A model generated the notes under the pieces. The model had not been told where the DNA came from. It saw nothing but the letters and a program-made list of their open reading frames with translations, and made no database searches. DNA of 64,000 bases from a virus. Taxonomy: Duplodnaviria > Heunggongvirae > Uroviricota > Caudoviricetes. Positions 6,285 through 47,509 of the stretch are shown here, one piece after another. Made by a program: the position numbers and the translations under genes. Within the stretch, counting starts at the first letter, position 1; each line of letters opens with the position of its first letter. Where the stretch lies: IMG/VR virus record IMGVR_UViG_2671180139_000002, positions 39,803 to 103,802 of that record, one strand, 5' to 3'.

Positions 6285-6287
6285 AAG

Positions 6288-19107: not shown

Positions 19108-19150
19108 GATTGCCTGCGGAGAGGAGAGTGAAAGGGTGCCTATCCTAGTT

Positions 19151-30455: not shown

Positions 30456-31436
30456 TTAGAGCCCTTCGAGCTCGCTGAGGATGGAGTCCATGTCCTCCTC
30501 GTCGATCACGGCGCCGAAGTCGTCACCCTTGGAGGCGGGCTTGGCTTCCTCGACCGGAGCAGGCTTCGGCTTCGTGACGGTGGCCTTGGCGGTCGCCGGC
30601 GTCGCGACGACTTCCGGGGTCTCCTCGACCTCCTCGGCAACCGAAGCCGCCGCCGACGTGAGCAGGGCAGAGGTCGAGCGGCCGATCGCGGGCACCGAAA
30701 TGCCGGTCATCTGGGTGATCGCGTTCAGGGCCTTCGTCTCGTCACCGCGGAAGAATTCCTTCTCGATGAACTCGTCGAGGTCGACGCACTTCTCCAGGGC
30801 GCTCGCCGGAACCGGATTGGGCTTGAGCGACGGCATGACCGTGTACTCGGTGTCCAGGCCCTTGCCCTTGCGCTCGATGACGAAATCGATGCCGGTCTTG
30901 GCGTCGAAGATGTTGGTTTCGTCGCCGTACTGCTCAGCCATCGAGAGGATGGTGCCGAAGGTCGTCGGCGTCATTTCCAGGACCACCGGATCTTCCGAAG
31001 CGTCGGAGCCGGAACGGATGAGCGCGTTCACGAGGACGCTCTTCTTGGCCTTCCATTCCTTGATGATGGCGAGGGAGTCGTCGTCGGTCGCTGCATGAGC
31101 GGCCTTCTCGATCGCCTGGCAGATGGGGCAGGGCTCGTCGTTGACGACGTCGCGGCAGCCGACGACGGCGACGGGCTTGCCGTTCTTCTCCATCTTGATC
31201 CAGTGGACGCCGAGATCAGCCCAGAACTTCTCGTCGGGCTTGGGCTGAAGGATGCGGACGGTGGTCTTGCCTTCCTTCAGCTTCACGGAACGGCTGTTGT
31301 TCCGGGAATACTTGTTCTTCGCGCCTTTGACGAGCGCGGCGAGAGCGGGAGAGAGAGCCATAAAATGCCTTTCGTACTTCGTGCTTTGATGCTGCGAGAC
31401 TTGCCTATCGCCCTTTAGCGATTTAGCGAATTGCAT
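30456..31436 (-). CDS. gp32-like single-stranded DNA-binding protein
   Basis: Zn-binding H...C...CPIC cluster in a gp32-like core (HWIKMEKNGKPVAVVGCRDVVNDEPCPIC) and an acidic C-terminal tail. Confidence 0.7.
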   Translation of the reverse strand: MQFAKSLKGDRQVSQHQSTKYERHFMALSPALAALVKGAKNKYSRNNSRSVKLKEGKTTVRILQPKPDEKFWADLGVHWIKMEKNGKPVAVVGCRDVVNDEPCPICQAIEKAAHAATDDDSLAIIKEWKAKKSVLVNALIRSGSDASEDPVVLEMTPTTFGTILSMAEQYGDETNIFDAKTGIDFVIERKGKGLDTEYTVMPSLKPNPVPASALEKCVDLDEFIEKEFFRGDETKALNAITQMTGISVPAIGRSTSALLTSAAASVAEEVEETPEVVATPATAKATVTKPKPAPVEEAKPASKGDDFGAVIDEEDMDSILSELEGL

Positions 31437-31510: not shown

Positions 31511-32359
31511 TTACTTCCCGATGCTGATCATCGGGGTGGAGCCTCCGGGAACCATCGTGGAGGGGAGCTTGCCGTCCCAGCGTTCCGCCTGGGTCAGAGC
31601 TACGAGGTTGGGGTTGTCGCGCAGGGCATCGCCGCGAGCCTTGATGGCGGCCGCTTCGGCTTCGCCGCGCTTCTGCGTGGCATAGGCGTCAGCGTCGGCC
31701 GCGGCGCGCACCGAGTCTGCCTTGGCCTGGGCCTGCGTGACGGTGATCTGGGCCTGGACCTTCTCGCGCTGGGCGTTCTGCTGGAGCTTCTCGACTTCGA
31801 TCTGCGCCTGCATCCGCTGCTCGATCGAGGCGACGTACTGCGGGCTGAACGTGATCTCCTCGATCTGCACGCCCTCGACCACGACCGGGCCGTCGACCGA
31901 CTTCGCGATCGCGTCGAACACCTGCTGGTTCAGCTTGGCCCGGTCCTGGATGGCCTGCTGCGCGGTGAAGCGGCCGAACACGTTCTTGAACTGCTGCTGG
32001 ATGCGCGGCTGAATGAGACGGCTCTCGACGTTCTCAGCGTTGCGGAACTCCGCGTAGATCGCCTGCACCTTGCCGGGATCCAGGTGGTAGTTCACCGACA
32101 CGCGGATGTTCGCCGGCTGCTGATCGGAACTGTAGGCTTCCATCTGATCGATGGTCACGACCTGCATCTGCACCGGAAGCCGGGCGATGCTCTCGATGAT
32201 CGGCACGTTGAAATGAAGGCCGGGCTGCGCTTCACCGACGATGGCACCGTTGCGCAGGATCACGCCGCGTTCGCCGGCGTCGATTGAGCTGGCGCTGGAG
32301 AAGGCCAAAATACCGACGAAGAGAGCGGCGCCGGCGAGCAGAATTGCCTTGGGTTTCAT
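31511..32359 (-). CDS. SPFH/band-7 (prohibitin/HflC-like) membrane protein
   Basis: N-terminal TM anchor followed by an SPFH core (VVTIDQMEAYSSDQ..., coiled-coil tail). Confidence 0.75.
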   Translation of the reverse strand: MKPKAILLAGAALFVGILAFSSASSIDAGERGVILRNGAIVGEAQPGLHFNVPIIESIARLPVQMQVVTIDQMEAYSSDQQPANIRVSVNYHLDPGKVQAIYAEFRNAENVESRLIQPRIQQQFKNVFGRFTAQQAIQDRAKLNQQVFDAIAKSVDGPVVVEGVQIEEITFSPQYVASIEQRMQAQIEVEKLQQNAQREKVQAQITVTQAQAKADSVRAAADADAYATQKRGEAEAAAIKARGDALRDNPNLVALTQAERWDGKLPSTMVPGGSTPMISIGK

Positions 32360-33398: not shown

Positions 33399-36300
33399 TT
33401 AGGCGATGAGATCCGCGACCTTGGCGAAGACCTCGTTCAGGGCGAGCTGTTTGTCGCGATCGTGGTAGATTTCGCCAGGGTTGAAGCCGATGACGACGTT
33501 GGCGTCGAACTGCTCGCTGTAGACGATCTTGCCCGCCGCATCCGACGCCTTGCCCTTGAAGTCAGGGAAGAACTGGCGAACGACGGTGGAGCCGAGCAGG
33601 ACGATCACCGGAGGCTTCAGGAGATCCAGCTCGCGCTGCAGATAGGGCGCGTAGGTCGCGATCTCCTCGGGCGAGACCTGCTTGCCTTCCTTCGGCCGCT
33701 TGATCAGCGCGGTCCAATAGCCATCGGCACGGGCGAGACCCGCCTCCGACAGGGCTTCCGCCGTGTAGCCGAAGCTTTCTGCGAACGCCATGACGCCAAG
33801 ACGCTCCTCGCCGTTGGTGGGCGCGTCGGTGATCGCCACGAACTTCGCCTGTTTGCCGAAAGTGATCTTCACCGGCATCCCGTCGGTTTCCCCGGGCGAC
33901 GGCGCTGCTGGTCCATGCGCGCTCCGGTATTCTGCCATGAGCTCCGCGATCTTCACCTTGGTGGGTCTGTCCGTGTGCATGTCGCGGTGGACAGGCACGA
34001 CGGCGTCGATCAGCCCTGGAATGAACTCGATCTGATCCTTGATGCGGCTCGGGTCGCGAGCGGACAGAGAGCCTGGCACAATGCGCGCGAAGACGCCCAC
34101 CTTGTCCATCACCTCCATCTTGCCCTTATGGACCAGGCGCTTGTTCACGGCCGCGGTGAACTCCTCCAGCGACGCGAACTTGCCGCCGACGCTCTTGCGC
34201 GCCTCCACGATCGCCTTTGCTGCGTTTTCCGAGAGACCCTTGATGCGCGTGAAGGGGATGCAGAGCTTGGTGTCGGTCAGGATCTCGAACTGCTCGGTCG
34301 ACAAGTTGAGGTCCGGGAGCACGATTTCGATGCCGAGCCGCTCCGCGTCCTTCAGGAGACCGGGGAGCTTCTCCTCGTTCATCAGAGACAGCGCCGCAGC
34401 GAAGAACTCGACGGGGTAGTTCGTCTTCAGCCACATCGACTGATAGGAGATCAGCGTGTACTCGACCGAGTGGCTCTTGTTGAAGCCGTAGCCCGCGAAA
34501 GCGGAAATCTTCTCGAAAATGTCGCCCGCCTGGCTCTCTCCCAGCCCGTGCGTCGCCTTGCAGCCTTCGACGAACTTGTCCTTCTGCTTCGCCATCTCCT
34601 CGGGCAGCTTCTTGCCCATGATCTTGCGCAGCTTGTCGGCTTCAGCCATCGAGTAGCCGGCGAGATCGCGAGCCACCTGCATGACCTCTTCCTGGTAGAC
34701 CATGACGCCGTAGGTGTCCTTCAGCGCGTCGGTTATACTGGGATGGTCGAATTCGACCGTCTCCAGGCCCTGCTTGCGCAGGTAGTAGGAGTCCATCATC
34801 CCGGAATCCATCGGGCCCGGACGATAGAGTGCGGTCGCGGCCGTGATGTCGTCGAAGGTGATGGTGCCGTCCTTGCCGAGCTCACGCAGCAGGCGCCGCA
34901 TTCCGCCGGACTCGAACTGGAAAATGCCGGTCGTGATGCCCTTCGCGAAGTTGTCCAGCACCGCTTCGTCATCAAGCGGGATGCGCATGAGGTCGACCCG
35001 CTTGCCGTGACGCTCGCGGATGTATTTCAGGGTCAGATTGATGAGGTCCAGGGTGCTGAGACCCAGGATGTCCATCTTGACCAAGCCCTGATCCTCCACG
35101 ACGCGCTTGTCCCAGCAGACCACGCTTTCACCCTTGCGCCGCTCGATGACGGCGCGCTCCACCAGATCGCAGCCACCCACGACGATGCCGGCGGCGTGCT
35201 GACCAAGAGTGCGCGTGACACCCTCGACGCTGAGGCAGATGTCCCAGATCTCCGGGTTTCGATCCCGGAACTGGCCGATCTCGGCGACCTGATCGGCGGA
35301 ATCCTTCAGCTTCACGGACTGCCCGTGTTCCTTGGGTGCCAACTTGGAGCAGCGATAATCGTTCTCGCTGAGCCCGCAGACGCGCGAGACGTCGCGGATG
35401 GCCGCTGCCGGCCCAAGCGCGATGAAGTTGGCGACGCCGGCGACGCGCTTGCTGCCGTACTTCTCGACCAGGTATTCCACGACCTCATGCCGGCGCTCGG
35501 ACATGAAGTCGAGGTCGGCGTCGGGAAGGTCGATACGATCAGGGTTGATGAAGCGCTCGAACAGCAGACCGAAGCGGATCGGGTCGCAGTCGGTGATCCC
35601 CATCAGATAAGCCACGAGCGAGCCGCCGACGGAGCCGCGCCCTGGACCAACCAGAATGCCGTTGGATTTGGCGAACTGCACCACGTCCTGCACCAGCAGG
35701 AAGTAGCCGGAGAAGGAGAGCTTCTTGAGAACCTCCAGCTCGTAGGCGAGGCGGGGCCGATAGACGTCCCTCAGCTCCTCAGCCGTGGGTTTGTGGCCGA
35801 AGACCGACGAACCGAACCGCTTGGCCCAGCCCCCCTTGCACTCATTCACCACCGCCAGGAACTCGTTCGGCGCCATCGTGGGCAGTGAGACCGGCGCCTT
35901 GGCCCAGGAATAGGTCACCATGTCGGCAAGCCGGGCCGTGTTCTTGAGACCCTGGGTGAAGCAGGCGCCTGGGTCGGTCACGCCGCGGGCTTTCAGCCGG
36001 GTGATCGCGCCCTTGCACTCACCGGCGAGTTCCGACATCGAGAGCGGATGAAGATCGCGGGAGAAGGGTGAATTGTGCCAGCCGTCCGTGATCTTCACGT
36101 TGCGGGTGACCGCGTTCATGATCTCGGCCGCGTCGGCGCCCTCCTTCAGATAGGAGGCGGGGCGCGTGGTCAGAAACTCGCAGCCGAGCGCCTCCGCCGC
36201 GGCGATCGCGCGCTTGTTCAGCGTGTCCCAATACGGCGCGTTGATCGGCGTCAGCGTCAAGAACACGTTGCGAGCGCTCAGAGCGTCAACGCACTTGCGC

Positions 36301-36776
36301 AGTATGTCGAGCGCGTCAGCATGATGGAGCACGCTGTAAGCGTCGCTAGACGCGATTGCGACGTCATCCGACGTGACGTCTTCAAGCGCTGCGAACAAGT
36401 CAGCGAAGCTCAGCTTCGGGTTGTTGTAGAAGCGCTCCTCGGAGTTGGCGAGGGTGAGCAGCCGGAAGAGAGCGTGAAGCCCCTTCTCCGACAGCACGTA
36501 CCAGGTCAGATAGAACTCCGGCGGGGCCTTCTTGTCCTCCTTGGTCTTGCGCCAGGAGGGATCGTTGACCAGGCGCAGGCGGCAACCGATGATCGGCTTG
36601 ATTTCCGCCGCCTTGGCCTTGTTGGTGAAGTCGATCAGCCCGGTCACGGACATGGTGTCGGTGATCGCAACGGCCTTGGCACCCAGGGCCTTGGCACCGT
36701 CGACCAGCTTCTCGACCGTCAGAATGGATTCGCCGATCGAGAAATTCGTCCGCGCCGCCAGAATGGAATGCATCAT
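33399..36776 (-). CDS. dnaE: DnaE-type DNA polymerase III alpha subunit with C-terminal UDG-family-4-like domain
   Basis: N-terminal PHP domain; polymerase-core motifs (FERFINPDR, GYGFNKSHS); the C-terminal ~190 aa match family-4 uracil-DNA-glycosylase architecture. Confidence 0.85.
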   Translation of the reverse strand: MMHSILAARTNFSIGESILTVEKLVDGAKALGAKAVAITDTMSVTGLIDFTNKAKAAEIKPIIGCRLRLVNDPSWRKTKEDKKAPPEFYLTWYVLSEKGLHALFRLLTLANSEERFYNNPKLSFADLFAALEDVTSDDVAIASSDAYSVLHHADALDILRKCVDALSARNVFLTLTPINAPYWDTLNKRAIAAAEALGCEFLTTRPASYLKEGADAAEIMNAVTRNVKITDGWHNSPFSRDLHPLSMSELAGECKGAITRLKARGVTDPGACFTQGLKNTARLADMVTYSWAKAPVSLPTMAPNEFLAVVNECKGGWAKRFGSSVFGHKPTAEELRDVYRPRLAYELEVLKKLSFSGYFLLVQDVVQFAKSNGILVGPGRGSVGGSLVAYLMGITDCDPIRFGLLFERFINPDRIDLPDADLDFMSERRHEVVEYLVEKYGSKRVAGVANFIALGPAAAIRDVSRVCGLSENDYRCSKLAPKEHGQSVKLKDSADQVAEIGQFRDRNPEIWDICLSVEGVTRTLGQHAAGIVVGGCDLVERAVIERRKGESVVCWDKRVVEDQGLVKMDILGLSTLDLINLTLKYIRERHGKRVDLMRIPLDDEAVLDNFAKGITTGIFQFESGGMRRLLRELGKDGTITFDDITAATALYRPGPMDSGMMDSYYLRKQGLETVEFDHPSITDALKDTYGVMVYQEEVMQVARDLAGYSMAEADKLRKIMGKKLPEEMAKQKDKFVEGCKATHGLGESQAGDIFEKISAFAGYGFNKSHSVEYTLISYQSMWLKTNYPVEFFAAALSLMNEEKLPGLLKDAERLGIEIVLPDLNLSTEQFEILTDTKLCIPFTRIKGLSENAAKAIVEARKSVGGKFASLEEFTAAVNKRLVHKGKMEVMDKVGVFARIVPGSLSARDPSRIKDQIEFIPGLIDAVVPVHRDMHTDRPTKVKIAELMAEYRSAHGPAAPSPGETDGMPVKITFGKQAKFVAITDAPTNGEERLGVMAFAESFGYTAEALSEAGLARADGYWTALIKRPKEGKQVSPEEIATYAPYLQRELDLLKPPVIVLLGSTVVRQFFPDFKGKASDAAGKIVYSEQFDANVVIGFNPGEIYHDRDKQLALNEVFAKVADLIA

Positions 36777-37321
36777 CCCCTCTTGAGTGTCAGGCGCCCG
36801 TTCATCTCCTCCGCCGCGCCTAGCGCGACGAGAGCCTGACAGGCTTGAATTGCGTGAGAGGCCGCGGTCGCGGAGCTCCAGCCGAGCTTGGACTGGAGAG
36901 CCTGGCGCAGCATGTTGCGGTCAAAGCCCGAGGGCAGACGGAGCAGCAGGTGACAGGCGACCCGCATGAAGACGGGGGTCTTCTCAAACGGGTTCTCGCC
37001 GGCCGACAGACGTTCCGTCACCTTGATGCCGGCGCGCTCGAAGCGAGCGAGCAGCTCCTCTACCTTCTTCGGCAGGTTGCTCGTCAGTTGGATCGCCGGC
37101 GCGGGGTCGAGCTTCTTGGGCCGTTCCGCGCGCATTGCGGTCTTGGTCTTGCGCTCCACGATGCCGAGCTTGGCGCGGACATAGGCCATGTTGGCGGCGC
37201 TCAGCGGCCCGCAATTGGCCGCGAAGACGCACGTTTTGCATTCCGCCGCTTCAGCCTTGAAGGTCAGGGCCGAGCCGTAGCAGCCCGGCGCGCCCAGCGG
37301 CCTTTCCTTGCCACAAGTCAT
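36773..37321 (-). CDS. Cys-rich hypothetical protein
   Basis: 182 aa; N-terminal C...C...C..C cluster; ATGA overlap with dnaE. Confidence 0.4.
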   Translation of the reverse strand: MTCGKERPLGAPGCYGSALTFKAEAAECKTCVFAANCGPLSAANMAYVRAKLGIVERKTKTAMRAERPKKLDPAPAIQLTSNLPKKVEELLARFERAGIKVTERLSAGENPFEKTPVFMRVACHLLLRLPSGFDRNMLRQALQSKLGWSSATAASHAIQACQALVALGAAEEMNGRLTLKRG

Positions 37322-37950
37322 TATTGACTGACGACTCCCGTGATGGATCGGACCTCGTGATAGATTGCTTGGCGCTCCACGCGGTTGGCGCCCATGAGGT
37401 CGAAGATCAGCCCCGCCGTGAGTTGGTTGGGGGCATAGGTGTTGATGCCGCGCGAACGGGCATATTCGGACTTGGCCTTGATCGCCTGGATCTCAGCGAA
37501 GAGCTCCGGTGGCGGGTTTTCCAGGAGCTCGACGAATTGGCGAGCCCGTGGCGAAAGCCGCCTGAGGACCCGAGCCAGGCTATCTCGCTCGATGGCGCTT
37601 TGCTCCGGCAACGGCGCTGCATCCGGGAAGACGGAATGCAGACTGGCTCCTTCGCCATCCTCGCCCAGGTTCTTGTCGAGGGAGATCGCGGTCATGTGAG
37701 AGTCACCGATCGCGTCAGCGAGGAAGCGATTGATGTGGTTCTTCATGCCGCGCGTGAGGAAGGCGCCAAAGGGGACGTTGTACTCCGCCTTCCAAGCATC
37801 GCGCGCGAGGCACCAGGCGATCGAGAGCTCCTGAACGATGTCCTCGAACTCCACTCCGCGGGCTCCTGCAGCATGAACACGCTGCAGGACCTTGCGGGCG
37901 AAGCCGCGGATCAGCGGCTGACTGCTCTCATAGGTGATCTCCGGCTGCAT
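37321..37950 (-). CDS. RNA polymerase sigma factor (sigma-70 family region-2-like; possibly gp55-type late sigma)
   Basis: DIVQELSIAWCLARDAWKAEYNVPFGAFLTRGMKNHINRFL resembles sigma region 2; LSPRARQFVELL resembles region 4. Confidence 0.5.
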   Translation of the reverse strand: MQPEITYESSQPLIRGFARKVLQRVHAAGARGVEFEDIVQELSIAWCLARDAWKAEYNVPFGAFLTRGMKNHINRFLADAIGDSHMTAISLDKNLGEDGEGASLHSVFPDAAPLPEQSAIERDSLARVLRRLSPRARQFVELLENPPPELFAEIQAIKAKSEYARSRGINTYAPNQLTAGLIFDLMGANRVERQAIYHEVRSITGVVSQ

Positions 37951-39143
37951 CAGCCGAAGATCCGCTGCGCGAACTGCTCCACGACTTCCTTGTCGGTGCG
38001 CGAGAGACGGTTCGTGTAGCCAAGCCGGAGACCGCCGCGCCAGTCAGAGCCGCGCACGAGACCCAGGCGGGCCGCCGCGATCAGCTCGCGGGGCGAGACG
38101 GTGGAGCCGATACGGTTTGCGCGGAAGGCGTCGCGGATCTCCTTCGCGAAGTCCACGATCTTCTCGGCGTCGCGCTTGTCGATGCCGGTCTTGCCGACGA
38201 TCACCGCGACCTCGACCTTCTTCTCCATGTAGAGGACTTCCTCCACGATCGCAAAGCGGCTGTAGTTTGCGGCGTTCTGGATCTGGACGCCCTGATAGAG
38301 GCCCGTCTCGTCGCCGCCGCCGTTGGTATTGCCGGTCGCGACAAAGCGGAAGTCGGGATGCGGGCGGATAACGCGGAACTCCGGCGGAGCTTCCTTGATG
38401 ACCAGCGGCTTGCCCTCAAGCACCGGCTGGTAGACGGACAGCACGGAGGGCATGGCGAAGTCGTACTCGTCAGCGGCGTAGACGTGCCCGTTGAGCATCG
38501 CGAGCGTCAGCGGGCCGGGCTGGAACTCGGTCGCGCCATTCTTCACGACGTACTGGCCGACGATGTGCGCCTCTTCCGTATTGACGGTGTGTTGGACACG
38601 CATGAAAGGCCGCCCGGTGCGGGCGCAGACCTGCTCGAACACAGTGGTCTTGCCGCTGCCGTGCATTCCCCAGAGATACGTCGGGAGATTGAGCTCCAGG
38701 CCGATGATCACCGTCTTCGTGAGGTCGATGTTGAACACGTAGGACTTGTCGATATCCGGCACGATCGCCGCGGCCTCCGGATCGAGACCGCTGAAAATTG
38801 AGATCGGGATCGGCTCGCCGCGGGCGTTCAGAGCAGCGGCTGCCTTGCCGAGCTCGAAAATTTCGTGAAGAGGCTTTTTCGCGATAGAGCGATCTCGCGA
38901 AGCCGCAGCACCGGTCTCCAGCTTCTGCGAGACGGGGATCTTTTCGCCTTCGCGTTCCTTGGTGCGCTTCTCGATCTGCGCCTTCGCCATGTCGGAGAGG
39001 AGCGGCGCGTGCGGAAACTCCTGCTTGTATCGCTCCAGCGTCCATTCCGGATGCTGCGCCTTGATGTGAAGCTGCACGGAATGGACCCGGGCGCCGTCGA
39101 TCTGGCAGGTGATCTTGCCGTCGTCGATCGTTTCCGTCGTCAT
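37950..39143 (-). CDS. CobS-like AAA+ ATPase (MoxR/CbbQ class)
   Basis: Walker A GMHGSGKTT and an AAA_5-like core; N-terminal region typical of phage CobS; paired with the downstream CobT-like gene. Confidence 0.7.
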   Translation of the reverse strand: MTTETIDDGKITCQIDGARVHSVQLHIKAQHPEWTLERYKQEFPHAPLLSDMAKAQIEKRTKEREGEKIPVSQKLETGAAASRDRSIAKKPLHEIFELGKAAAALNARGEPIPISIFSGLDPEAAAIVPDIDKSYVFNIDLTKTVIIGLELNLPTYLWGMHGSGKTTVFEQVCARTGRPFMRVQHTVNTEEAHIVGQYVVKNGATEFQPGPLTLAMLNGHVYAADEYDFAMPSVLSVYQPVLEGKPLVIKEAPPEFRVIRPHPDFRFVATGNTNGGGDETGLYQGVQIQNAANYSRFAIVEEVLYMEKKVEVAVIVGKTGIDKRDAEKIVDFAKEIRDAFRANRIGSTVSPRELIAAARLGLVRGSDWRGGLRLGYTNRLSRTDKEVVEQFAQRIFG

Positions 39144-39206
39144 GAATTCTCACCTCGTGTGTGTGCTGTGATGCTTTGACTTTATCGATTTCGACGCGGA
39201 AGACAA

Positions 39207-39222
39207 GTAAGTAATGACTTAC
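39207..39222. promoter_or_regulatory. palindromic motif variant (GTAAGTAATGACTTAC)
   Basis: Between the cobT-like stop and the cobS-like start. Confidence 0.4.
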
Positions 39223-39284
39223 CATTTAAGTCCCGCGTCGACGTTTTTCGCCTGCTTTCGCGCTCTTGCGCGGAAAGTGGCAGC

Positions 39285-41516
39285 TCATGCCGTGAGGATA
39301 CGCTTGAGCTCACCCATGACGGTCCCCGGCAGGCTCTCCAGGTCGTGAAGCACCATGTGCTTGGGGTAGAAGGTCTTCACCGCGTCGTTCATGATGCCGA
39401 TACCGATGACCTCGATTCCGGCTTTGGTTGCGCCCGCCACACTGGCGTGCAGGTGTGAGTACAGAGCTTTCCGATCGCCATCAGCCGCGGGGTAGCCGTC
39501 GCTCAGCACCAACAGCACCTTGCGATGTTCACGCCTGGGCATGAGCCGCAGCGACGCCGTCTCTACAGCTTCGCCGTCGACGTTATTGGCGAGGAAGCGC
39601 TGGTTCATAGCCGCGTCCGCAAAGCGTCTCTTGACCGCCGGGGTAAGACGCTCCTCGAAGCCCTTGTAGATCGGCATCAGGATCGGCTCGGTTCGTGCGA
39701 ATTTCGTGCCGATCCGACGCGCCTCATTCCGAATAACTTCCGCAGACCAACCTGCCGGCTTGGTCGCCCACATCGTTGTGAAGCCGATGCACTCGTGAGC
39801 GATACCGACGCGCTCCAATGTCTGCGACAAGGCATAGCCCGCAGACATCGCGACACGCATCGGAGCTCCGCCCATCGAGCCCGAATTGTCGATCAGCAGG
39901 GAGACGGCGGTGTCTTTGGAGTTGTTCTCCTGGGTGCGGCGAAACACCCGGTCGTCGCCGGCGCTGATGCGGTGAAGGCTGGCGGAATGAAGACGACCGG
40001 AGCGGAAGCCCGGCACTCTGAGGACCTGACTGCGCGACGCCATCATCCGCTCGATGTCCTTCTGCATGACCCCGATCATGTGCCGGGTTTCGTCATCCAG
40101 CTTGGTGAGCTGCTCGTCCTTGAAGGACGCGGACACCTCGTGGCGCTCGATCCGATCGAAGTCCTTCGTGAACAGGACGTACTCGGCGTTGCGCGTTTCG
40201 CGGGTGGTGGCGTCGGTGATGCGCTTCTCCAGGGCGCCATCAAAGTCCGCATCAGTGAGATCCGGCGAGTTATCCATGAAGGGCGAGCCACGCGGGGAGG
40301 CTTCCGCTTCCGTATCGCGTCCACGCTCGGCCTTTCCGCCCTCGTCGGCATCGCCATCACCCTCGGCGCCAACCTCTCCGTCGTCGCCGTCTTCGTCGTC
40401 ACCCGAGGAGTCACCCTTGCCGCCGCTGTTCTCGTCGCCGTCTTCCTGCTCACCGTCGCCGGTGCGCAGATCACCTTCCTCGTCCTCTTCGTTTTCGTCA
40501 GCGCCGTCGCCGTCCTTCTCGTCGGAGCCGGCACCATCGTCCTCGTCGCCTTCGTCGGCGTCCGTGGACTCGTCTTCCTCGGACTTGTCACCCCTGCCTG
40601 ACTTTTCGTCGTCGGCGCCGCTCTTCTCCTTGGTTTCGTCATCCTCGGCCGCGGGTTTCGGCTTCTTGGGGGCAGGGGCCTTGCTCTTACCCTCTTCCTC
40701 ACCGCCGGCGTCATCATCGGACGGCTTGCTCTTGCTGGAGGACGGCTTGCCCTTCTGCTCGCCCGAACCCTTCTTCTTGCCCGAGCCCTTGCCGCCGGAC
40801 GACATGCTCTCGGAAGGATCACCCTCGTCTTCCCCTTCGTCTTCAGCACCCGAGGGCTTCGGCGGGTAGAGAACAGCGTGGAGCGTTTCCGCGATATCCA
40901 GTGCCTCGGCCGAGTTCTTGATCTTGGGGAAGCGCTTGATCACCTCCTCGGGCACGTTCTCCACGAACGCCTTGACCAGCGAATGATCCCAGTGACCTTC
41001 GCTCTTGAGGAAGTGCTGGAACTTCTCCTGCCCGGACCAGGCTCGGCAGATCGGCACGAGCAGCACCTGGAACTCGCGCATTGGGTCGCCCTTGACCTTC
41101 GGGTCCTTGAGAGCGGTTTTCGTGATGTTGGCGATGAAAAAGTCGTGAAGGCGCTTCACGTTGAAGACGGAGCCGGGGAACTTGCCGCCGATCGCGCGTT
41201 CGATGAAGGTGTCCTCCACGATGTTGTGGAGCTGATCCATCTGCTTGCCGTGCTTTGCAGCCTTCTTCACGACAGACCAGTCGGTGAAGAGGACGTGCGC
41301 GACTTCGTGGTCGATGAAGCCCTGGATCGCGAGAATCAAATCCTCGGTCGCGGTGTCCGGAATAAAGGGAATGTTGACGCGAACGGGCTTCAAGGTCACC
41401 GGATCGCTCTCGACGTAAGCCTGCGCGCCCTGCTGAGTGACGCGCAGCCCCTTGCCCGTGAGCATCTGCGTGAGCTTGACGATGGCGTCGCGCAGCGTCG
41501 CAATGTCTCTGTTCAT
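39285..41516 (-). CDS. CobT-like protein with C-terminal vWA domain and a long acidic low-complexity linker
   Basis: vWA MIDAS motif VLLIDNSGSMGG; ~170-aa D/E/G/K/S-rich linker; N-terminal CobT-like region. Confidence 0.7.
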   Translation of the reverse strand: MNRDIATLRDAIVKLTQMLTGKGLRVTQQGAQAYVESDPVTLKPVRVNIPFIPDTATEDLILAIQGFIDHEVAHVLFTDWSVVKKAAKHGKQMDQLHNIVEDTFIERAIGGKFPGSVFNVKRLHDFFIANITKTALKDPKVKGDPMREFQVLLVPICRAWSGQEKFQHFLKSEGHWDHSLVKAFVENVPEEVIKRFPKIKNSAEALDIAETLHAVLYPPKPSGAEDEGEDEGDPSESMSSGGKGSGKKKGSGEQKGKPSSSKSKPSDDDAGGEEEGKSKAPAPKKPKPAAEDDETKEKSGADDEKSGRGDKSEEDESTDADEGDEDDGAGSDEKDGDGADENEEDEEGDLRTGDGEQEDGDENSGGKGDSSGDDEDGDDGEVGAEGDGDADEGGKAERGRDTEAEASPRGSPFMDNSPDLTDADFDGALEKRITDATTRETRNAEYVLFTKDFDRIERHEVSASFKDEQLTKLDDETRHMIGVMQKDIERMMASRSQVLRVPGFRSGRLHSASLHRISAGDDRVFRRTQENNSKDTAVSLLIDNSGSMGGAPMRVAMSAGYALSQTLERVGIAHECIGFTTMWATKPAGWSAEVIRNEARRIGTKFARTEPILMPIYKGFEERLTPAVKRRFADAAMNQRFLANNVDGEAVETASLRLMPRREHRKVLLVLSDGYPAADGDRKALYSHLHASVAGATKAGIEVIGIGIMNDAVKTFYPKHMVLHDLESLPGTVMGELKRILTA

Positions 41517-42876: not shown

Positions 42877-43467
42877 ATGAACTGGTATTTGAAGGCGATG
42901 CGCCGCTACTTCGAGTGGCGTGGTCGATCGGCGCGGGCCGAGTTTTGGTACTTCACGCTCTTTTATCTGATAATCTCCTTCCTCAGCGGTGTGGTCGATT
43001 ACCTCCTTGGCTACACCGATGTCGATCAGCTTACCCCGGTAAACACCCTGGTGATCCTGGTCCACATCATCCCGACGATCACCGTCTCCATCCGCCGCTT
43101 TCATGATAGAGATCAGAGCGGCTGGCGGACACTCGGTCTCATCGTTCCGATCGCCAATCTGGTGCTGCTCGCTGACCTCGCCCGAAGGGGAACAGACGGG
43201 CCCAATCGATTTGGCGACGATCCGCTCGACCCCATTGCCGATCCTCACGTCCATTCTCGTCTTCTTCAAGCTGGCGCCCCTAGAAGCGTACCTGTTGTCA
43301 ACCCGAGAAGACCCACATTCACTTCTCACAACGCCGCCGTACCCAGCTCCAGCAACAGCTTGATTGAAGAGATCGAGCGTTTGGATCAGCTTCGGCGAAA
43401 CGGCGTCATCTCCGAGCAGGAGTTCGATCGTCTGAAAGCCAACACCATGAAGCGAGCTGACGCATAA
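42877..43467 (+). CDS. DUF805-family inner-membrane protein with C-terminal SHOCT domain
   Basis: MNWYLKAMRRYFEWRGRSARAEFWYF...IRRFHDRDQSGW is the DUF805 signature; C-terminal LIEEIERLDQLRRNGVISEQEFDRLKAN is SHOCT-like. Confidence 0.7.
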   Translation: MNWYLKAMRRYFEWRGRSARAEFWYFTLFYLIISFLSGVVDYLLGYTDVDQLTPVNTLVILVHIIPTITVSIRRFHDRDQSGWRTLGLIVPIANLVLLADLARRGTDGPNRFGDDPLDPIADPHVHSRLLQAGAPRSVPVVNPRRPTFTSHNAAVPSSSNSLIEEIERLDQLRRNGVISEQEFDRLKANTMKRADA

Positions 43468-43898
43468 TGAACCCCGACGTTTCTACGGGCCTTCTGCTCA
43501 TCGTCATCCTGATTGCGCTCTATCTGTTGCCCGCGATCATCGCCTTCTCACGAGGGCACCATAACCGGGTCGCCATCCTCGTTCTCAACTTGCTGCTGGG
43601 ATGGTCAGTTCTCGGTTGGATCGCCGCGCTGGTTTGGTCGTTCACGGCGGTCGAGCGTGCGCCAGGCGTCATTTATACCGATCAGCGAGCCCGTGAGCCA
43701 CGAACCGTTCGTATTGAGCCCGTTTCGCCCGTTCGGCAGATCGAACCTGTGGTGTCGGCCGAACCGCCGGCGAGCTTAGACGGGGCCGATATCGAAGAGC
43801 ATTTGCGCCATCTTGAGGCGTTAAGAGGTCGCGGCGTGATCACCGAGGAAGAACTGCGCGAACTCAGGCTGAAGGCGATCAGCCACTCCGTCCGATAG
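43467..43898 (+). CDS. superinfection immunity (Imm-family) membrane protein with C-terminal SHOCT domain
   Basis: LYLLPAIIAFSRGHHNRVAILVLNLLLGWSVLGWIAALVWSF matches the Imm_superinfect signature; C-terminal LRHLEALRGRGVITEEELRELRLKA is SHOCT-like. Confidence 0.65.
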   Translation: MNPDVSTGLLLIVILIALYLLPAIIAFSRGHHNRVAILVLNLLLGWSVLGWIAALVWSFTAVERAPGVIYTDQRAREPRTVRIEPVSPVRQIEPVVSAEPPASLDGADIEEHLRHLEALRGRGVITEEELRELRLKAISHSVR

Positions 43899-43993
43899 GC
43901 GATCTCGACACCACCGGAAGTAGCATGGTGGGACGCACCCGGACCATGCTCCTCTCAACTCGTTCTTCGTTCTCGAAGAGCGGGAGAGAGATA

Positions 43994-44434
43994 ATGAGAA
44001 GCATCATTCAGGTGGCAGAGGTGTTGTCGGTGATCAGCTTCGTCGCGTTCTGTTTGATGGGCGCGGTGACCCTCTGGATCCAACAAAAGGCAGCAGCGGC
44101 CGCCGGCGCAGCCACAACCAGTGCGGCTGGTGCCGCCGCGAGCGCCGCGGCACAGCCTACAGCCGATCAGCACGGCTTCGCAGCCGATGCGTTGCAGACT
44201 GCAGTCGACCTGGTGAAAGCAATTCCTGCAGCAATGGAGGCCGTCGTAAAGGCAGGACCCGCCATGGCGGCACTTCTTGCTTCCATACTCTTTCTGGCGA
44301 TCGCGGCCACGGTCGCGATCGAGCGCCAGCCGAAACTCTCATGCTCGATCCCCGCGCAGACGGGCCTGACCCTTGACCAAAACAAGTTGAAAGATGCGGT
44401 GACGGTGATCTGCGTGGGCGTCAAGAAGAGCTAG
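43994..44434 (+). CDS. membrane protein (Ala-rich, 2-3 TM)
   Basis: Hydrophobic helices at both ends and a poly-Ala central segment; third gene of the plus-strand island. Confidence 0.4.
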   Translation: MRSIIQVAEVLSVISFVAFCLMGAVTLWIQQKAAAAAGAATTSAAGAAASAAAQPTADQHGFAADALQTAVDLVKAIPAAMEAVVKAGPAMAALLASILFLAIAATVAIERQPKLSCSIPAQTGLTLDQNKLKDAVTVICVGVKKS

Positions 44435-44534
44435 CTTCTCCGCCATCGACGATTTCACCGGCCCGCCGGCGTCAATCCCCTACCCTGCTCCTGTCCTGTG
44501 AATAACGGGACTCGCCACCTCATCCCGAATCGCG

Positions 44535-44548
44535 CATCACTTGTGATG
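44535..44548. promoter_or_regulatory. perfect inverted repeat CATCACttGTGATG upstream of the RHH gene
   Basis: ~25 nt upstream of the 44573 start; operator-like. Confidence 0.4.
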
Positions 44549-44572
44549 CTTCCGTGGTGAACGAGGCGTTTT

Positions 44573-44791
44573 ATGGATCGAGCAGTGGATCAGAGCAGCC
44601 ACCGGCGCCGCATGGCGCAGCACAGAGAGCAGCGCAAGGCCGAAGGGTTTCGCGAGGCTAATGTGTGGTTGCGCCAGGATACGCTCGCCGAAATCGACGA
44701 GCTGGTCGCGTCTGGACAGTTCCGCAATCGATCCGAAGCCATCGCTGCCGCCGCGCAAGCCTTCTTCAAGGAGAAGACTTTGAACACGTAA
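44573..44791 (+). CDS. ribbon-helix-helix (CopG/ParD-like) DNA-binding protein
   Basis: WLRQDTLAEIDELVASGQFRNRSEAIAAAAQAFF has the RHH beta-alpha-alpha pattern. Confidence 0.55.
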   Translation: MDRAVDQSSHRRRMAQHREQRKAEGFREANVWLRQDTLAEIDELVASGQFRNRSEAIAAAAQAFFKEKTLNT

Positions 44792-44929
44792 CCGCAAAAG
44801 CAAAAGGGCCTACGAGGTTGGCGCCTCGTAAGCCCTTGATGTTGATCACCGCCTGGTAAGGCAGACAACCGCGCTTCAGCAACGCGAATCTGCCCCTCCA
44901 GTCCGAAGAAGTCAAGTGACACCTTCGCG

Positions 44930-46102
44930 GTGAACGGCATCGCTTTGCCTGAAAACGGGGAATTGATGCAGACCGTCCCATCGGGCGGCCGACGGCTCAC
45001 GCCTGCCGTTTTGGCCGGGAGAGAACTCGCGTTCGAGAAAGAGCGCACCGTCTCTCGTAAGGAATTGGCGCAAACCGCTCGTGAAGCTGAGAAAGCTCTC
45101 TCGCTGCGGCCCGGGCTGCGTCTGGTCCTCCATGAGCTTGTTGGCTCTTGGGGCGAACAGGACTTCGAGGGCAAGCTTCTGGTCTGGCCGTCGAATGATT
45201 ACCTGGTCGCGCGCACCGGCTTGTCGGAACGCACCGTGCGGTATGCGGTCAGCCAGCTTGTGGAGCTGCAGCTCGTCTCCTCGAAGGACTCCGCGAATGG
45301 GAAGCGCTTCGCTATTCGCGATCGCGCCGGCGAGATCGTGGACGCCTTCGGCTTCGACCTGACGCCTCTCTATGCGCGCCGGGGAGAGTTCACTGCCGAG
45401 ATCGAGCGCCAGAAGCTCGCGCGTGACGCCCAGGGGCGCTTGTTCGACCAGATTACGATCTGTCGCCGGGCGACGGAGGAAGCGCTCAGCGCGCTCGCGG
45501 AGCATTTCCCGGGTGTCGTCACTGCTGATCTGATCGAAGCGCTGGATGAGCTTCGCGAGCGTACTCCGCGACGTGGTTCCATGCGGCCAATCGAACGGCT
45601 TGTCGGTGAGTGGTTAGAGATCCGAAGGCTTGCCGAGAAGCGCTATTATGAGTCCGCCAATGGCGGCAATTCTTGCCGCCACAAAGAAACAAACAACGAC
45701 TCCCCTAGTGAGTCTTGTACAAAGGTCGATGAGGGAGTTGGTTCAGCGGAACGGCCCGTTTCCCTCACACTCGGCCTCGTATTGGATGCCTGCCCTGCCC
45801 TTTCGATGTATCCGCGGCCGATCCGCAGCGAAAATGACCTGATCGACGCTGGAAAGCATCTTCGATCCATGCTGAGCGCACATCCGAGCGCCTGGCGAGA
45901 GGCCGTTGAGGCGATCGGACCCGTGCGAGCTGCCGGCGCCGTTGCTCTCGTGCTCCAGCTCTATGAAGACGATCAGGCCGCGGGCACGAACCGGATCCGA
46001 AATCCTGGCGGCTACTTCCGAGCCATGGTGCGCATGGTCGCCGAGGGCCGGGTCGACCTGCAGACGGAGATCATCGCGCTTCGGAAACGTCGGCTCTGCT
46101 GA
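44930..46102 (+). CDS. repC: RepC-like plasmid replication initiator (repABC family)
   Basis: LLVWPSNDYLVARTGLSERTVRYAVSQLVELQLVSSKDSANGKRFAIRDRAGEIVDAFGFDLTPLYARRGEF...ICRR aligns closely with RepC proteins; an internal AT-rich stretch lies at ~45640-45730. The true start may be the second Met at 44966. Confidence 0.7.
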   Translation: MNGIALPENGELMQTVPSGGRRLTPAVLAGRELAFEKERTVSRKELAQTAREAEKALSLRPGLRLVLHELVGSWGEQDFEGKLLVWPSNDYLVARTGLSERTVRYAVSQLVELQLVSSKDSANGKRFAIRDRAGEIVDAFGFDLTPLYARRGEFTAEIERQKLARDAQGRLFDQITICRRATEEALSALAEHFPGVVTADLIEALDELRERTPRRGSMRPIERLVGEWLEIRRLAEKRYYESANGGNSCRHKETNNDSPSESCTKVDEGVGSAERPVSLTLGLVLDACPALSMYPRPIRSENDLIDAGKHLRSMLSAHPSAWREAVEAIGPVRAAGAVALVLQLYEDDQAAGTNRIRNPGGYFRAMVRMVAEGRVDLQTEIIALRKRRLC

Positions 46103-47509
46103 TCAGAAGAGCTTAAAGTGGGTCACCGGCTTGAAGATATCTCCTACGGCCTTCTCAACCTTGTAGATATCGTTTCCGGGACCTGGACCGTGTTGAAGAT
46201 CGTGAAGACCATTGTTGAGAGCCTCTACGGTTTTCCCTCGAAGCCCGAAAGGATCCTCTATCGTCTTCAGAGCCTGATAAGCTACGCTATTCTCCCCGAG
46301 AGCGTGTTTAATCATGTCATCCCGTTGGTGCAGTAGTTTGACAAAGTCATTATTTGGACCAAAGCACCCGTCGTCTGTGCCAATACCATGTTCGAGACAC
46401 TTTCCAAGCTCGCGCTCAAGAAGCTTACCGCCTGTGCAGACGACATACGCATGGGGCTCCATCTTGGTGTCGATCGCGCAACCTAGAGCGATCTGTTGCT
46501 CCGGAGTAGCATTACGGGCAATCGCGCAGACCATAGCAGCCGAGAGACTATCTTTGTTTTGGGTGAGACATGCGAGGTAGTACCGCTGATCCTCGTTCAT
46601 AAATGGGTCAGCCACGCAAACTGCCCGGTCGGTGTTGCTATGCGCCTTGTCCACGCACTTTTTGAGATTGGTCACCTTGTCGTATATTTCGGTGAATCGC
46701 TTCCCACCGGTGGAACAAGCTAGAGCTCTGACGCGATCCTCGTCGTTATCCTCAAGGCACTTTTCCGTGGTTCGGTATGAGCGCGGAAGCGCGCGCTCGA
46801 CAACACAGGACTGAAACTCATCCTCGGTATTTGAACCTTCCTGACATTCCCGCAGACCATCCAAGCTGGGTATCGGAGGCGCTGCCAGCATCGTCTCGGA
46901 CTGAGCCGTCCCCGAGTTGGTGATCAGCCCCTCGCCATTCATGCCTTCGGTCGGCACAGAGACGGATAATCCCGCGGGAGTTATGCTGCCGAAGCCATTC
47001 GGGTTGATGAAAATCGGGCCAGGATCGGAAGGCGGAGGCGGTGCGCAGATTAGCGCTCCAGGAAGCCCACAAGGCAATGCTGACAGGCAGGTAGGAAAAG
47101 GTGGAGTCCCGCAAGCTGGTGCGACCGGGAATGGTGGAAACGGGAATCCGGGCGGTGGAGGGCACGCGATCGTGCCCGGTAAGCCACACGCGCGCGGCAT
47201 CGGGCAAGGAGACAGGCCCATTGCACCGCAGAACGGCTCACCTGATGAACCTACAATCGGCTGGACCACCGACCCAGTGGGAGAGCCGAAACAGGGACCG
47301 TTGTTGATGCAAGACTCGAAAGTCGGAGTATCGACAAAGAGCCCGCTACAAGCTTGCATCAACTGCGTGTTGACCGCTCCAACGTGCCAGCAGTCGATTA
47401 TCTTAGATCTCGGAGAGGCTTGTGAGTGGACAGCGTTCGTGACGCTGACGATAAGTATGACGCTTATGCAAAACCGCAGTAAAGCCGAACGTGAAAGTGT
47501 TGCGCCCAT
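46103..47509 (-). CDS. secreted Cys- and Pro-rich protein (signal peptide)
   Basis: N-terminal signal peptide (LLRFCISVILIVSVTNAVHSQA); about 40 Cys; repeated CGxPG...PPPP segments; the DNA is lower in GC than its surroundings. Confidence 0.55.
   Translation of the reverse strand: MGATLSRSALLRFCISVILIVSVTNAVHSQASPRSKIIDCWHVGAVNTQLMQACSGLFVDTPTFESCINNGPCFGSPTGSVVQPIVGSSGEPFCGAMGLSPCPMPRACGLPGTIACPPPPGFPFPPFPVAPACGTPPFPTCLSALPCGLPGALICAPPPPSDPGPIFINPNGFGSITPAGLSVSVPTEGMNGEGLITNSGTAQSETMLAAPPIPSLDGLRECQEGSNTEDEFQSCVVERALPRSYRTTEKCLEDNDEDRVRALACSTGGKRFTEIYDKVTNLKKCVDKAHSNTDRAVCVADPFMNEDQRYYLACLTQNKDSLSAAMVCAIARNATPEQQIALGCAIDTKMEPHAYVVCTGGKLLERELGKCLEHGIGTDDGCFGPNNDFVKLLHQRDDMIKHALGENSVAYQALKTIEDPFGLRGKTVEALNNGLHDLQHGPGPGNDIYKVEKAVGDIFKPVTHFKLF

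Follow-up and report, generated by a model that had tools for sequence, protein, structure and literature searches.

The DnaE-type gene examined here, in a 64,000-nucleotide stretch of Caudoviricetes DNA that we refer to as the window, encodes a C-family polymerase whose C-terminus has the fold of a family-4 uracil-DNA glycosylase (UDG). The residues for uracil recognition and excision have been lost, so the domain very probably no longer acts as a UDG, and we tentatively propose that it now helps to hold the polymerase on DNA. On the best explanation, the gene's carrier is a relative of the Rhizobium phages B1VFA and RHEph10, either a siphophage or a phage-plasmid, and the gene product is its replicative polymerase. 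Its architecture is already known, and the window copy is a real, ordinary member of that group. The fusion itself is not new, having been published in 2014 and flagged by a GenBank note and by PGAP; for the window, the finding is a correct annotation rather than a discovery.

Domain architecture

The protein is a DnaE-type polymerase of the C family, with PHP, Pol3 core, fingers and (HhH)2 domains in that order (Table 1). In NCBIfam profile searches the full protein clears the 434-bit cutoff of the superfamily model TIGR00594 with a score of 700 bits, and matches the DnaE1 equivalog model at 757 bits, below its cutoff of 1002. The PHROGs profile phrog_405 ('DNA polymerase') covers residues 5-1124. 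The order of PHP, palm/thumb/fingers and (HhH)2 is that of E. coli or T. aquaticus Pol III alpha (DnaE1), and alignment to E. coli alpha shows an intact catalytic Asp triad (D419, D421 and D569). The first two lie in the segment 'lpdadldf', opposite E. coli 'mpdfdvdf' (D401, D403), and the third lies within VKMDILGL, opposite VKFDFLGL, where its partner is D555. The C-terminal family profile that covers (HhH)2 matches E. coli alpha residues 733-896. Unlike DnaE1, the window protein has neither an OB fold nor a tau-binding C-terminal domain (CTD), and its PHP metal site is degenerate, with R9 opposite E. coli H12 and an N-terminus (ILAARTNFS) that lacks His-x-His.

Matches to DnaE models end at about residue 899, and beyond that point there are UDG matches alone. 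The UDG superfamily profile PF03167 scores 34.9 bits with the full protein, against a gathering score of 24.3, and 37.9 bits with the isolated C-terminus. The family-4 UDGa model TIGR00758 scores 48.9 bits, under its subfamily cutoff of 125.3, and the UdgX model TIGR03914 scores a weaker 19.3 bits. In phmmer, canonical family-4 UDGs are matched at an E-value of 1e-7 and UdgX at about 0.1. The domain has the alpha/beta UDG fold. UdgX is among its nearest structures in the fold search, and its BFVD structural neighbours include many PolA-UDG proteins. A preliminary description of this DNA had proposed a DnaE with a C-terminal family-4-like UDG fold, to be abandoned should profile or structure searches place the region in a canonical OB or tau-binding domain. 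Those searches were run, and the proposal holds: no OB or tau-binding match appeared in Pfam, NCBIfam, PDB or fold searches, and every search returned UDG, which rules out a canonical DnaE C-terminus. That the region is OB/tau after all, or resembles UDG by chance, is hardly credible, as no result supports it and the profile and fold searches contradict it.

Table 1. Positions in the window of the polymerase gene, its domains and motifs, and other replication genes
Feature	Position	Strand	Basis or remark
DnaE-type polymerase gene	33399..36776	(-)	1125 aa + stop codon; ORF listing
PHP domain, residues 9-173	36258..36752	(-)	Pfam PF02811, E 9e-18
Pol III alpha catalytic core, residues 312-572	35061..35843	(-)	Pfam PF07733, E 2e-75
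Fingers domain, residues 575-741	34554..35054	(-)	Pfam PF17657, E 1e-55
(HhH)2 duplex-DNA-binding module, residues 815-899	34080..34334	(-)	Pfam PF14579, E 1.8e-14
Conserved linker R911-R931 (RIKDQIEFIPGLIDAVVPVHR)	33984..34046	(-)	Relatives' alignment, AF2 model
QIEFI, residues 915-919, candidate beta-clamp-binding motif	34020..34034	(-)	Family pattern and position
Family-4-type UDG-fold domain, residues ~935-1125, catalytically degenerate	33402..33974	(-)	Sequence and fold searches
UDG motif A remnant, TDAPT (983-987) vs GE[AG]PG	33816..33830	(-)	Alignment to TM0511 and S. tokodaii UDG
A1023 through basic loop KRPKEGK (1026-1032; vs KCRPPxNR)	33681..33710	(-)	Family-4 alignment
UDG motif B remnant, FNPGE vs F/Y-HPS; N1099 at catalytic His	33471..33485	(-)	Alignment
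DnaB-type helicase	52337-53713		Window ORF
Primase	51082-52197		Window ORF
gp32-like SSB	30456-31436		Window ORF
DnaQ-like exonuclease	6535-7098		Window ORF

Residue loss and continued conservation

The roles of the catalytic and pocket residues of family-4 UDGs have been defined in Tth UDGa, where k2/Km drops about 2,500-fold in H155S, about 40-fold in N80A and about 17-fold in F54A (PMC5387724). With this enzyme as the numbering reference, residues were counted across 148 aligned sequences of the DnaE-UDG family. The catalytic His (H155) is kept in a single sequence and is N1099 here. The uracil-recognising Asn (N80) is kept in none (A1023 here) and the water-positioning Asn (N89) in six (G1031 here), while the uracil-stacking Phe (F54) occurs at the aligned column in 11, the window copy having A997 with a Phe next door at 998. 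Motif A has become x-D-[ACGS]-P-x, with both flanking Gly lost and the Glu replaced by Asp (D984) in 138 sequences; in SSU5-type copies it reads LDNAN, with Asn third. Residues 901-1125 contain no Cys, and one Fe-S Cys position is deleted in the KCRPP-equivalent loop, so the domain carries no Fe-S cluster. The altered motif A and missing cysteines of the preliminary description are thus both confirmed. Measured against TM0511, Tth UDGa, S. tokodaii UDG and UdgX, the window domain is without GE[AG]PG, the HPS His, N80, N89 and the Fe-S cysteines. Descent from a true Fe-S family-4 enzyme is indicated by the copy in phage nickie, which retains a CxxC opposite T. maritima Fe-S ligands and a third Cys (three of the four ligands).

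The domain is nevertheless still under selection, being conserved about as well as the PHP domain. Its identity to the copies in B1VFA, RHEph10, nickie, BUCTxx99 and SSU5 is 60, 52, 32, 36 and 23%, against 51, 51, 28, 23 and 29% for the PHP domain. In terms of the ancestral enzyme, the retained residues lie along motif A and the loop corresponding to KCRPP: besides D984, they include K or R at K1026 (all 148 sequences), an acidic residue at 990 (141) and P1100 (139). The domain is net acidic, with a pI of 4.9-6.5 against 7.9 and 8.5 for two solved family-4 segments, and a general DNA-binding surface is therefore not favoured. The invariant motif-A Asp and a pocket that looks enlarged may leave scope for other chemistry.

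A C-terminal block with a conserved linker

Some relatives, namely L007 and Acinetobacter plasmids, have a polymerase gene that is interrupted after the fingers domain by an ORF with an HNH-like motif (L007) or NUMOD4 (Acinetobacter). BLASTP against L007 places the split just past the fingers, at window residues 742-749. In these split genes, HhH, linker and UDG fold are kept together as a single protein of 385-421 residues, of which the 421-aa Acinetobacter HhH-UDG protein WP_000695256 is a naturally separate example. A first homolog search returned short HhH+UDG proteins alone, which proved to be sampling bias. By tblastn and an exhaustive profile search, fused and split forms are both common, the split form making up about half of the representative clusters. 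The simplest reading of the split is the insertion of a free-standing homing endonuclease, though it could be an unrecognised intron. An intein was rejected because the C-terminal ORF begins only 18 residues ahead of its similarity to the window protein, a lead judged too short for a split-intein half, and a group I intron was rejected because Rfam gave no match at E <= 0.1 over L007 positions 2500-8000.

The linker between HhH and UDG fold is itself conserved. Among 114 fused and split relatives, R911 is kept in 110, Q915 in 108, P920 in 101, V927 in 92 and R931 in 94. The linker is predicted with confidence in a two-domain AF2 model (pTM 0.74; linker pLDDT 85-93). Within it, QIEFI follows a family pattern, Q-x-[ED]-[LFY]-[LIM], that is kept in more than 100 of the 114 sequences. 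This agrees with QL[SD]LF at positions 1, 4 and 5, and it lies directly after the HhH module, the usual site of the beta-clamp motif in C-family polymerases. We consider QIEFI (peptide RIKDQIEFIPGLI) a candidate beta-clamp-binding motif. The linker could alternatively be an inter-domain strut, as its predicted structure and a conservation reaching well past the pentapeptide would suggest.

The preliminary description saw no clamp or clamp loader in the window, and this was borne out when 55 of its ORFs were compared with Pfam, PHROGs or both. Among these are all the predicted genes of at least 200 aa bar one, a compositionally odd 262-aa plus-strand ORF (18343-19131). Nor is a clamp or loader present in the PGAP annotation, an incomplete gene table, of the Rhizobium plasmid pRlX6, which is the nearest plasmid match to the C-terminal module. 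The conserved clamp-motif-like peptide, together with this lack of a phage-encoded clamp, makes it plausible that the polymerase depends on a beta clamp.

Gene content of the window

Beyond the polymerase, Pfam and PHROGs identify rIIA/B-like proteins, a gp32-like SSB, a DnaB-type helicase, a DnaG-type primase, a bacterial-type RecA and SbcCD-like proteins. The preliminary description had called this set T4-like; its members belong to generic families, and only the gp32-like SSB and the rIIA/B-like proteins are shared with T4. The T4 replisome combines a family-B polymerase, gp43, with its own clamp (gp45) and loader (gp44/62), whereas the window has a DnaE and no clamp or loader was found among the scanned ORFs. 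A dUTPase, a ThyX-like thymidylate synthase, a TMP kinase and an RNR are also encoded. With this standard dTTP supply, the idea that the domain serves a phage DNA containing uracil or hmU is unsupported. The two small ORFs flanking dnaE gave nothing informative in Pfam or PHROGs.

Comparison with known systems

The closest precedent is the DnaEX variant PHP-Pol3-(HhH)2-UDG, in which OB fold and CTD are swapped for an archaeal-type PF03167 UDG (Timinskas, Balvociute, Timinskas, Venclovas, NAR 2014, PMC3919608). The window protein has this same domain order and is homologous to the copies on Yersinia and Salmonella plasmids, but as a member from an alphaproteobacterial phage it is distant from them, with about 37% identity to SSU5. 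The 2014 account deals with architecture alone, so that catalytic residues, linker motif and split forms fall outside it.

Fusions of a UDG to a family-A polymerase are an analogy only, since the window polymerase is of family C and carries its UDG fold at the C-terminus. The preliminary description drew this parallel with SPO1-type PolA-UDG. The SPO1-, SP15- and phiLo-type proteins, however, retain both motifs, A and B, and are reported to be active UDGs, whereas the window domain has lost the equivalent residues. N4-like family-A polymerases, which have an N-terminal UDG-like domain without catalytic residues (bioRxiv 10.1101/2025.03.26.645540; PMC10201439), are a closer analogue. In these, too, a UDG fold on a phage replicative polymerase has lost its catalytic residues, though the polymerase is of family A, the UDG is N-terminal and the fusion was an independent event. 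In the vaccinia E9-A20-D4 holoenzyme the UDG is a separate subunit bridged by A20, whereas here it is fused, or joined to HhH. D4 is an active, family-1-type UDG, and the window domain is of family-4 type and catalytically degenerate.

Possible roles of the C-terminal block

On our reading, the OB-fold and tau-binding domains were replaced by a descendant of an Fe-S family-4 UDG, and this domain, stripped of its uracil recognition and excision residues, has been kept by selection as a module that is most likely accessory and non-catalytic. UDG fold, (HhH)2 and QIEFI-bearing linker form one unit. We propose that this block keeps the polymerase bound to DNA, a contact that the lost OB domain would otherwise make, and that it probably tethers the enzyme to the host beta clamp; proofreading would then be supplied in trans by the phage DnaQ-like exonuclease. 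We regard the DNA-holding role as quite possible, stopping short of calling it probable. A rather unlikely alternative is that the dead domain is a protein-docking adaptor that stands in for the lost tau-binding domain and links replisome partners without contacting DNA. The partners considered were the DnaB-type helicase, the primase, the gp32-like SSB and the DnaQ-like exonuclease, all of them encoded in the window. Docking is equally compatible with the loss of catalytic residues, and it would suit an acidic domain (pI ~5) that sits where the tau-binding CTD would; vaccinia D4 likewise acts via a protein bridge. However, the best-kept residues lie on remnants lining the ancestral DNA/uracil cleft, including the basic KRPKxGK loop, and the domain always accompanies the HhH DNA-binding module, never a candidate partner.

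The preliminary description offered a non-catalytic module and a divergent active UDG as options, and the residue losses favour the former and disfavour the latter. An active glycosylase with new catalytic residues, such as the motif-A Asp, and perhaps a new substrate, performing co-replicative base excision, is improbable. It would account for the retention of D984 and of the acidic residue at 990. The N80 column holds small residues (A/S/G/T) and the F54 column G/A/L/M/T, so the pocket would be enlarged, and the SPO1- and SP15-like PolA fusions are reported active. The motif-B His is absent from MUG as well. In family 2 (E. coli MUG N18) and family 5 (Tth UDGb N120) an Asn has been proposed to position the water (PMC5387724), and SSU5-type LDNAN has its Asn at motif-A position 3, yet where MUG has this Asn the window copy has Ala. 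Further, H155, N80, N89, F54 and the Fe-S cluster are all missing together; dUTPase, ThyX-like synthase and TMP kinase already exclude uracil from phage DNA; and the scanned window ORFs showed neither an AP endonuclease nor a Pol X partner. For the broader suggestion that the domain is a glycosylase, or else binds lesions or bases, by chemistry re-invented on the motif-A Asp and an enlarged pocket, our expectation is lower still. If true, it would mean co-replicative base surveillance in a large phage-plasmid family that includes those of Yersinia, Salmonella and Klebsiella. Very improbable, finally, is a non-excising sensor that binds uracil, AP sites or a modified template base and stalls or regulates the polymerase, as modelled on the archaeal PolB read-ahead pocket or on the tight binding of UdgX. 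A UDG-fold pocket adjoining the replicase DNA path, with conserved residues around the old pocket and UdgX among the nearest structures, would fit such a sensor. The uracil-specificity residues N80, H155 and F54 are nonetheless missing, UdgX sequence matches are much weaker than those to canonical family-4 UDGs, and nothing points to unusual bases in this phage, which has a standard dTTP pathway and a dUTPase.

Should a DNA-holding or clamp-tethering role prove correct, this would be a third independent viral replicase to co-opt the UDG fold, after poxvirus D4 and the phage PolA fusions, and it would show a C-family polymerase working without OB and tau-binding domains. No functional work on SSU5-type DnaE and uracil was found in the literature.

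Relatives and distribution

A DnaE in this setting had been thought unusual; it is the norm in a siphophage and phage-plasmid lineage comprising RHEph10/B1VFA, nickie, SSU5 and the Acinetobacter AB group. An exact-sequence look-up found no record of the window protein itself. The nearest relative is 61% identical to the window protein, and SSU5-type proteins are homologous over the full length, with 36.8% identity over residues 6-1125. The UDG fusion is flagged in the GenBank note for RHEph10 and in PGAP product names. A search for the same fusion in related phage DnaE genes, as had been suggested, found it in hundreds of phage-plasmids and in phage records, with totals of 910 for plasmids and about 31 for phages. 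The DnaE-UDG family is the replicase of soil rhizobiophages and of a very common group of ~110-kb phage-plasmids, whose hosts are Klebsiella, Escherichia, Acinetobacter, Enterobacter, Yersinia and Salmonella. Plasmid records with the C-terminal module include 51 from Yersinia and 49 from Salmonella.

Domain layout and fold of the polymerase

The C-terminal domain of the window's DnaE-type polymerase is best supported as a catalytically inert fold, derived from a family-4 uracil-DNA glycosylase (UDG), that took the place of the OB and tau-binding domains. The protein scores well over the cutoff of the NCBIfam DnaE superfamily model, and matches the NCBIfam family-4 UDG model with an E-value of 5.9e-13, yet under that model's cutoff. 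The preliminary description of a DnaE with a C-terminal UDG-like domain is upheld: the peptides it quoted all occur in the translation, and Pfam PF03167 exceeds its gathering score. It had also named an OB or tau-binding domain as the assignment that would count against it; the fold is of family-4 UDG type and is neither of these.

Features of the polymerase, its genome setting and split relatives
Feature	Position	Strand	Source or remark
dnaE-type polymerase, 1125 aa	33399..36776	minus	ORF listing
PHP N-terminus	36686-36776 (DnaE residues 1-30)	minus	
PHP domain	residues 9-173		Pfam
Pol III alpha core	residues 312-572		Pfam
Fingers	residues 575-741		Pfam
HHH_6 (HhH module)	residues 815-899		Pfam
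C-terminal UDG-like span	33399-33974		DnaE residues 935-1125 plus stop codon
UDG superfamily model PF03167	residues 977-1102		Pfam, 34.9 bits vs gathering score 24.3
DnaQ/RNase T-type 3'-5' exonuclease	6535-7098	minus	PF00929, 58.6 bits
rIIB-like and rIIA-like adjacent pair	9649-13343	minus	phrog_2886, E 1.5e-80 (rIIB-like); HATPase_c (rIIA-like)
SPFH/Band 7 (prohibitin-like) membrane protein	31511-32359	minus	in replication module, between gp32-like SSB and dnaE
Small gene downstream of dnaE, 176 aa	32788-33318	minus	phrog_2058
Small gene upstream of dnaE, 182 aa, Cys-rich N-terminus	36773-37321	minus	phrog_3616
CobS-like AAA+ (AAA_5 + CbbQ_C) and CobT-like VWA gene pair	37950-41516	minus	upstream of sigma factor and dnaE
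Island, G+C 0.55-0.56 (lower)	42877-46336	plus	
Superinfection immunity protein	43467-43898	plus	in island
RepC plasmid replication protein	44930-46102	plus	in island
DUF805/SHOCT protein	in 42877-46336	plus	
Soil-metagenome relative, 812-aa PHP-Pol3-fingers ORF	in L007 2809-7709		matches window residues 2-742
Soil-metagenome relative, 256-aa ORF	between polymerase pieces		HNH-like motif
Soil-metagenome relative, 385-aa HhH+UDG ORF	in L007 2809-7709		matches window residues 749-1124
Acinetobacter phage-plasmids, dnaE 785 aa, NUMOD4 ORF 191 aa, 421-aa 'uracil-DNA glycosylase family protein'	L012 923-5166		

Loss of catalytic residues and retained selection

In Thermus thermophilus UDGa, the uracil pocket comprises E41, G42, E47, F54, N80 and H155, and N89 positions the water. 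The H155S change cuts k2/Km from 2.4e5 to 9.4e1; N80A and F54A reduce it about 40-fold and about 17-fold, respectively (PMC5387724). A first alignment set the window protein and its homologs, five from phages and 30 from metagenomes, against segments of the T. maritima family-4 UDG TM0511 and of the S. tokodaii UDG, and the residue census was widened to 148 sequences from an exhaustive profile search. Histidine occupies the H155 position in a single sequence, with N in 88, S in 40 and T in 12 of the rest. Asparagine is absent at N80 (0/148; replaced by A, S, G or T), while Phe at F54 and Asn at N89 are found in 11 and 6 sequences, respectively. The window copy has N1099, A1023, A997 (F998 adjoining) and G1031 at the H155, N80, F54 and N89 positions. 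The altered motif A and missing Fe-S cysteines reported earlier were both recovered: the window motif reads TDAPT, both flanking glycines are gone across the census, and residues 901-1125 contain no cysteine, making a 4Fe-4S cluster impossible in this copy. Judged from these residues, the domain very probably does not function as a uracil glycosylase.

The Pseudomonas phage nickie DnaE retains, within its last 220 residues, a C-x2-C aligned exactly to the T. maritima Fe-S ligands, together with a third Cys, a sign that the domain arose from a true Fe-S family-4 enzyme and then decayed step by step. The nickie domain represents an intermediate stage of a site wholly gone from the window copy.

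The domain is nonetheless under selection. Its identity to the B1VFA, RHEph10, nickie, BUCTxx99 and SSU5 homologs (60, 52, 32, 36 and 23%) is similar to that of the PHP domain (51, 51, 28, 23 and 29%, in the same order). Asp stands at the E41 position in 138 of the 148 sequences, an acidic residue at E47 in 141, K or R at K83 in all 148, and P156 is kept in 139. These kept positions group on remnants of the ancestral cleft motifs, and the rhizobial clade carries a basic KRPKxGK loop.

A unit with the HhH module

The UDG-like domain and the HhH module form one unit. In relatives, the gene is split just past the fingers domain, at window residues 742-749, via a homing-endonuclease-type ORF; the break point is roughly shared by two distant lineages, the soil-metagenome relative and the Acinetobacter plasmids. 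Rfam found no intron in the former. In the exhaustive search, the 150 best representatives contain about as many full-length fusions (1077-1172 aa, plus one of 1528 aa) as proteins of ~380-420 aa, and ordinary ~200-aa UDGs occur only below E ~1e-14. An AF2 two-domain model of residues 739-1125 (pLDDT 87.9, pTM 0.74) suggests that the two domains adopt a defined arrangement. In the Rhizobium plasmid pRlX6 (L009 1197-4566), the polymerase is annotated as a 348-aa PHP-domain protein and a 772-aa DnaE, split elsewhere; its repC, DnaB-like and MoxR/CbbQ genes also appear fragmented, and the split may reflect assembly frameshifts rather than biology.

Linker, clamp and proofreading

The HhH module and UDG fold are joined by a linker, RIKDQIEFIPGLIDAVVPVHR (residues 911-931), conserved in a diverse set of 114 relatives, both fused and split (R911 in 110, Q915 in 108, L/F/Y918 in 103, L/M/I919 in 106 and P920 in 101). 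In C-family polymerases, the beta-clamp motif directly follows (HhH)2, with the consensus QL[S/D]LF, of which positions 1, 4 and 5 are most important (Timinskas et al., PMC3919608). The window's QIEFI (915-919), a candidate for this motif, fits it in location and at the three key residues. Another form that it resembles is the Qxx[LI]xP variant known from MutL. The linker may instead be an inter-domain strut, since conservation reaches past the pentapeptide and its structure is predicted confidently (pLDDT 85-93) when the HhH is included.

As first described, no beta clamp or clamp loader is seen among the 55 window ORFs scanned with Pfam and/or PHROGs, a set that includes all predicted genes of at least 200 aa save one compositionally odd 262-aa plus-strand ORF (18343-19131). 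Neither appears in the PGAP annotation of pRlX6, whose match to the C-terminal module is the closest among plasmids (59.6% identity) and for which the gene table used is incomplete.

PHP-based proofreading is unlikely on sequence grounds, because the PHP domain has no N-terminal His-x-His to bind metal (its N-terminus reads ILAARTNFS, with R9 aligned to E. coli H12); proofreading is therefore probably supplied in trans. The window's DnaQ/RNase T exonuclease is a candidate trans-acting proofreader for this DnaE with its degenerate-looking PHP metal site. A similarly annotated 3'-5' exonuclease of ~188 aa is carried by pRlX6.

Interpretation and precedents

In the best-supported reading, the UDG-like fold, the HhH and the conserved linker would act as a substrate- and clamp-tethering block, with proofreading from a separate exonuclease and processivity via the host clamp. 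The chief weakness of the tethering reading is the acidic net charge of the UDG-like domain (pI 4.9-6.5), which keeps alive a purely protein-adaptor role. Two further readings, a re-invented glycosylase and a lesion sensor, could each draw on the near-invariant motif-A Asp and an enlarged pocket; both are less likely than an inert fold.

The architecture itself was described in 2014 by Timinskas et al. (PMC3919608), as DnaEX polymerases laid out PHP-Pol3-(HhH)2-UDG in which an archaeal-type PF03167 domain stands where the OB and CTD would be. The UDG domains of SPO1 and T5 PolA have been discussed as factors that might confer intrinsic processivity, in analogy to vaccinia D4 (Kazlauskas and Venclovas 2011). 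A 2025 preprint distinguishes SPO1- and SP15-like PolA, reported to keep the catalytic residues and to be active, from N4-like PolA, which has lost them (bioRxiv 10.1101/2025.03.26.645540). The window domain, without the family-4 determinants, differs in this respect from the former and resembles the latter. The GenBank note for RHEph10 already lists 'uracil-DNA glycosylase-like', and in PGAP the split form is called a UDG family protein; our literature search brought up no functional work on DnaE-UDG proteins. The C-terminal module of the window protein matches 34 phage records (~31 DnaE-linked) and 910 plasmid records (Klebsiella 288, Escherichia 214, Acinetobacter 153, Enterobacter 91, Yersinia 51, Salmonella 49, and others), the majority non-mobilizable and ~110 kb. 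The annotation is correct and well localised. It adds a divergent new member to an architecture that was already known and does not amount to a new kind of system.

Lineage and genome setting

The nearest relatives are the Rhizobium siphophages B1VFA, V1VFA-S and RHph_X66 (61% identity) and RHEph10 (59%), then nickie and Stenotrophomonas phages (43%) and SSU5-type phage-plasmids (36-38%), with all alignments running to the C-terminus. B1VFA and V1VFA-S are described as phage-plasmid-like, carrying parA, parB and repC (PMC12509600); RHEph10, nickie and SSU5 are discussed in or close to phage-plasmid groups (PMC7969092). Other genes in the window code for rIIA-like and rIIB-like proteins, RNR, ThyX-like thymidylate synthase, dUTPase, TMP kinase, SbcC-like and SbcD-like proteins, a bacterial-type RecA, FEN (5'-3' exonuclease), gp32-like SSB, CobS-like and CobT-like proteins, a sigma factor, ATP-dependent ligase, DnaG-type primase, DnaB-type helicase, PhoH and plasmid RepC. 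Given this content and these relatives, the idea that a DnaE is unusual in a T4-like gene set does not hold: the 'T4-like' look consists of generic families of replication and recombination genes, and a DnaE is what this lineage normally has as its polymerase. The plus-strand island with RepC and a superinfection immunity protein suggests that a phage-plasmid lifestyle is open to the element, as in B1VFA and pRlX6.

The 182-aa gene overlaps the dnaE start codon, suggesting translational coupling. Neither it nor the 176-aa gene has an informative Pfam match; both are possible polymerase accessory factors. B1VFA and pRlX6 have genes of comparable size at these two positions. A CobS-like AAA gene again lies near dnaE in pRlX6 and the soil-metagenome relative, and in SSU5 a gene for a 'putative porphyrin biosynthetic protein' lies just upstream of its dnaE. 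The rIIA/rIIB-like pair sits here in a siphophage/phage-plasmid-type genome. An SPFH-domain protein is also present in pRlX6, but away from dnaE.
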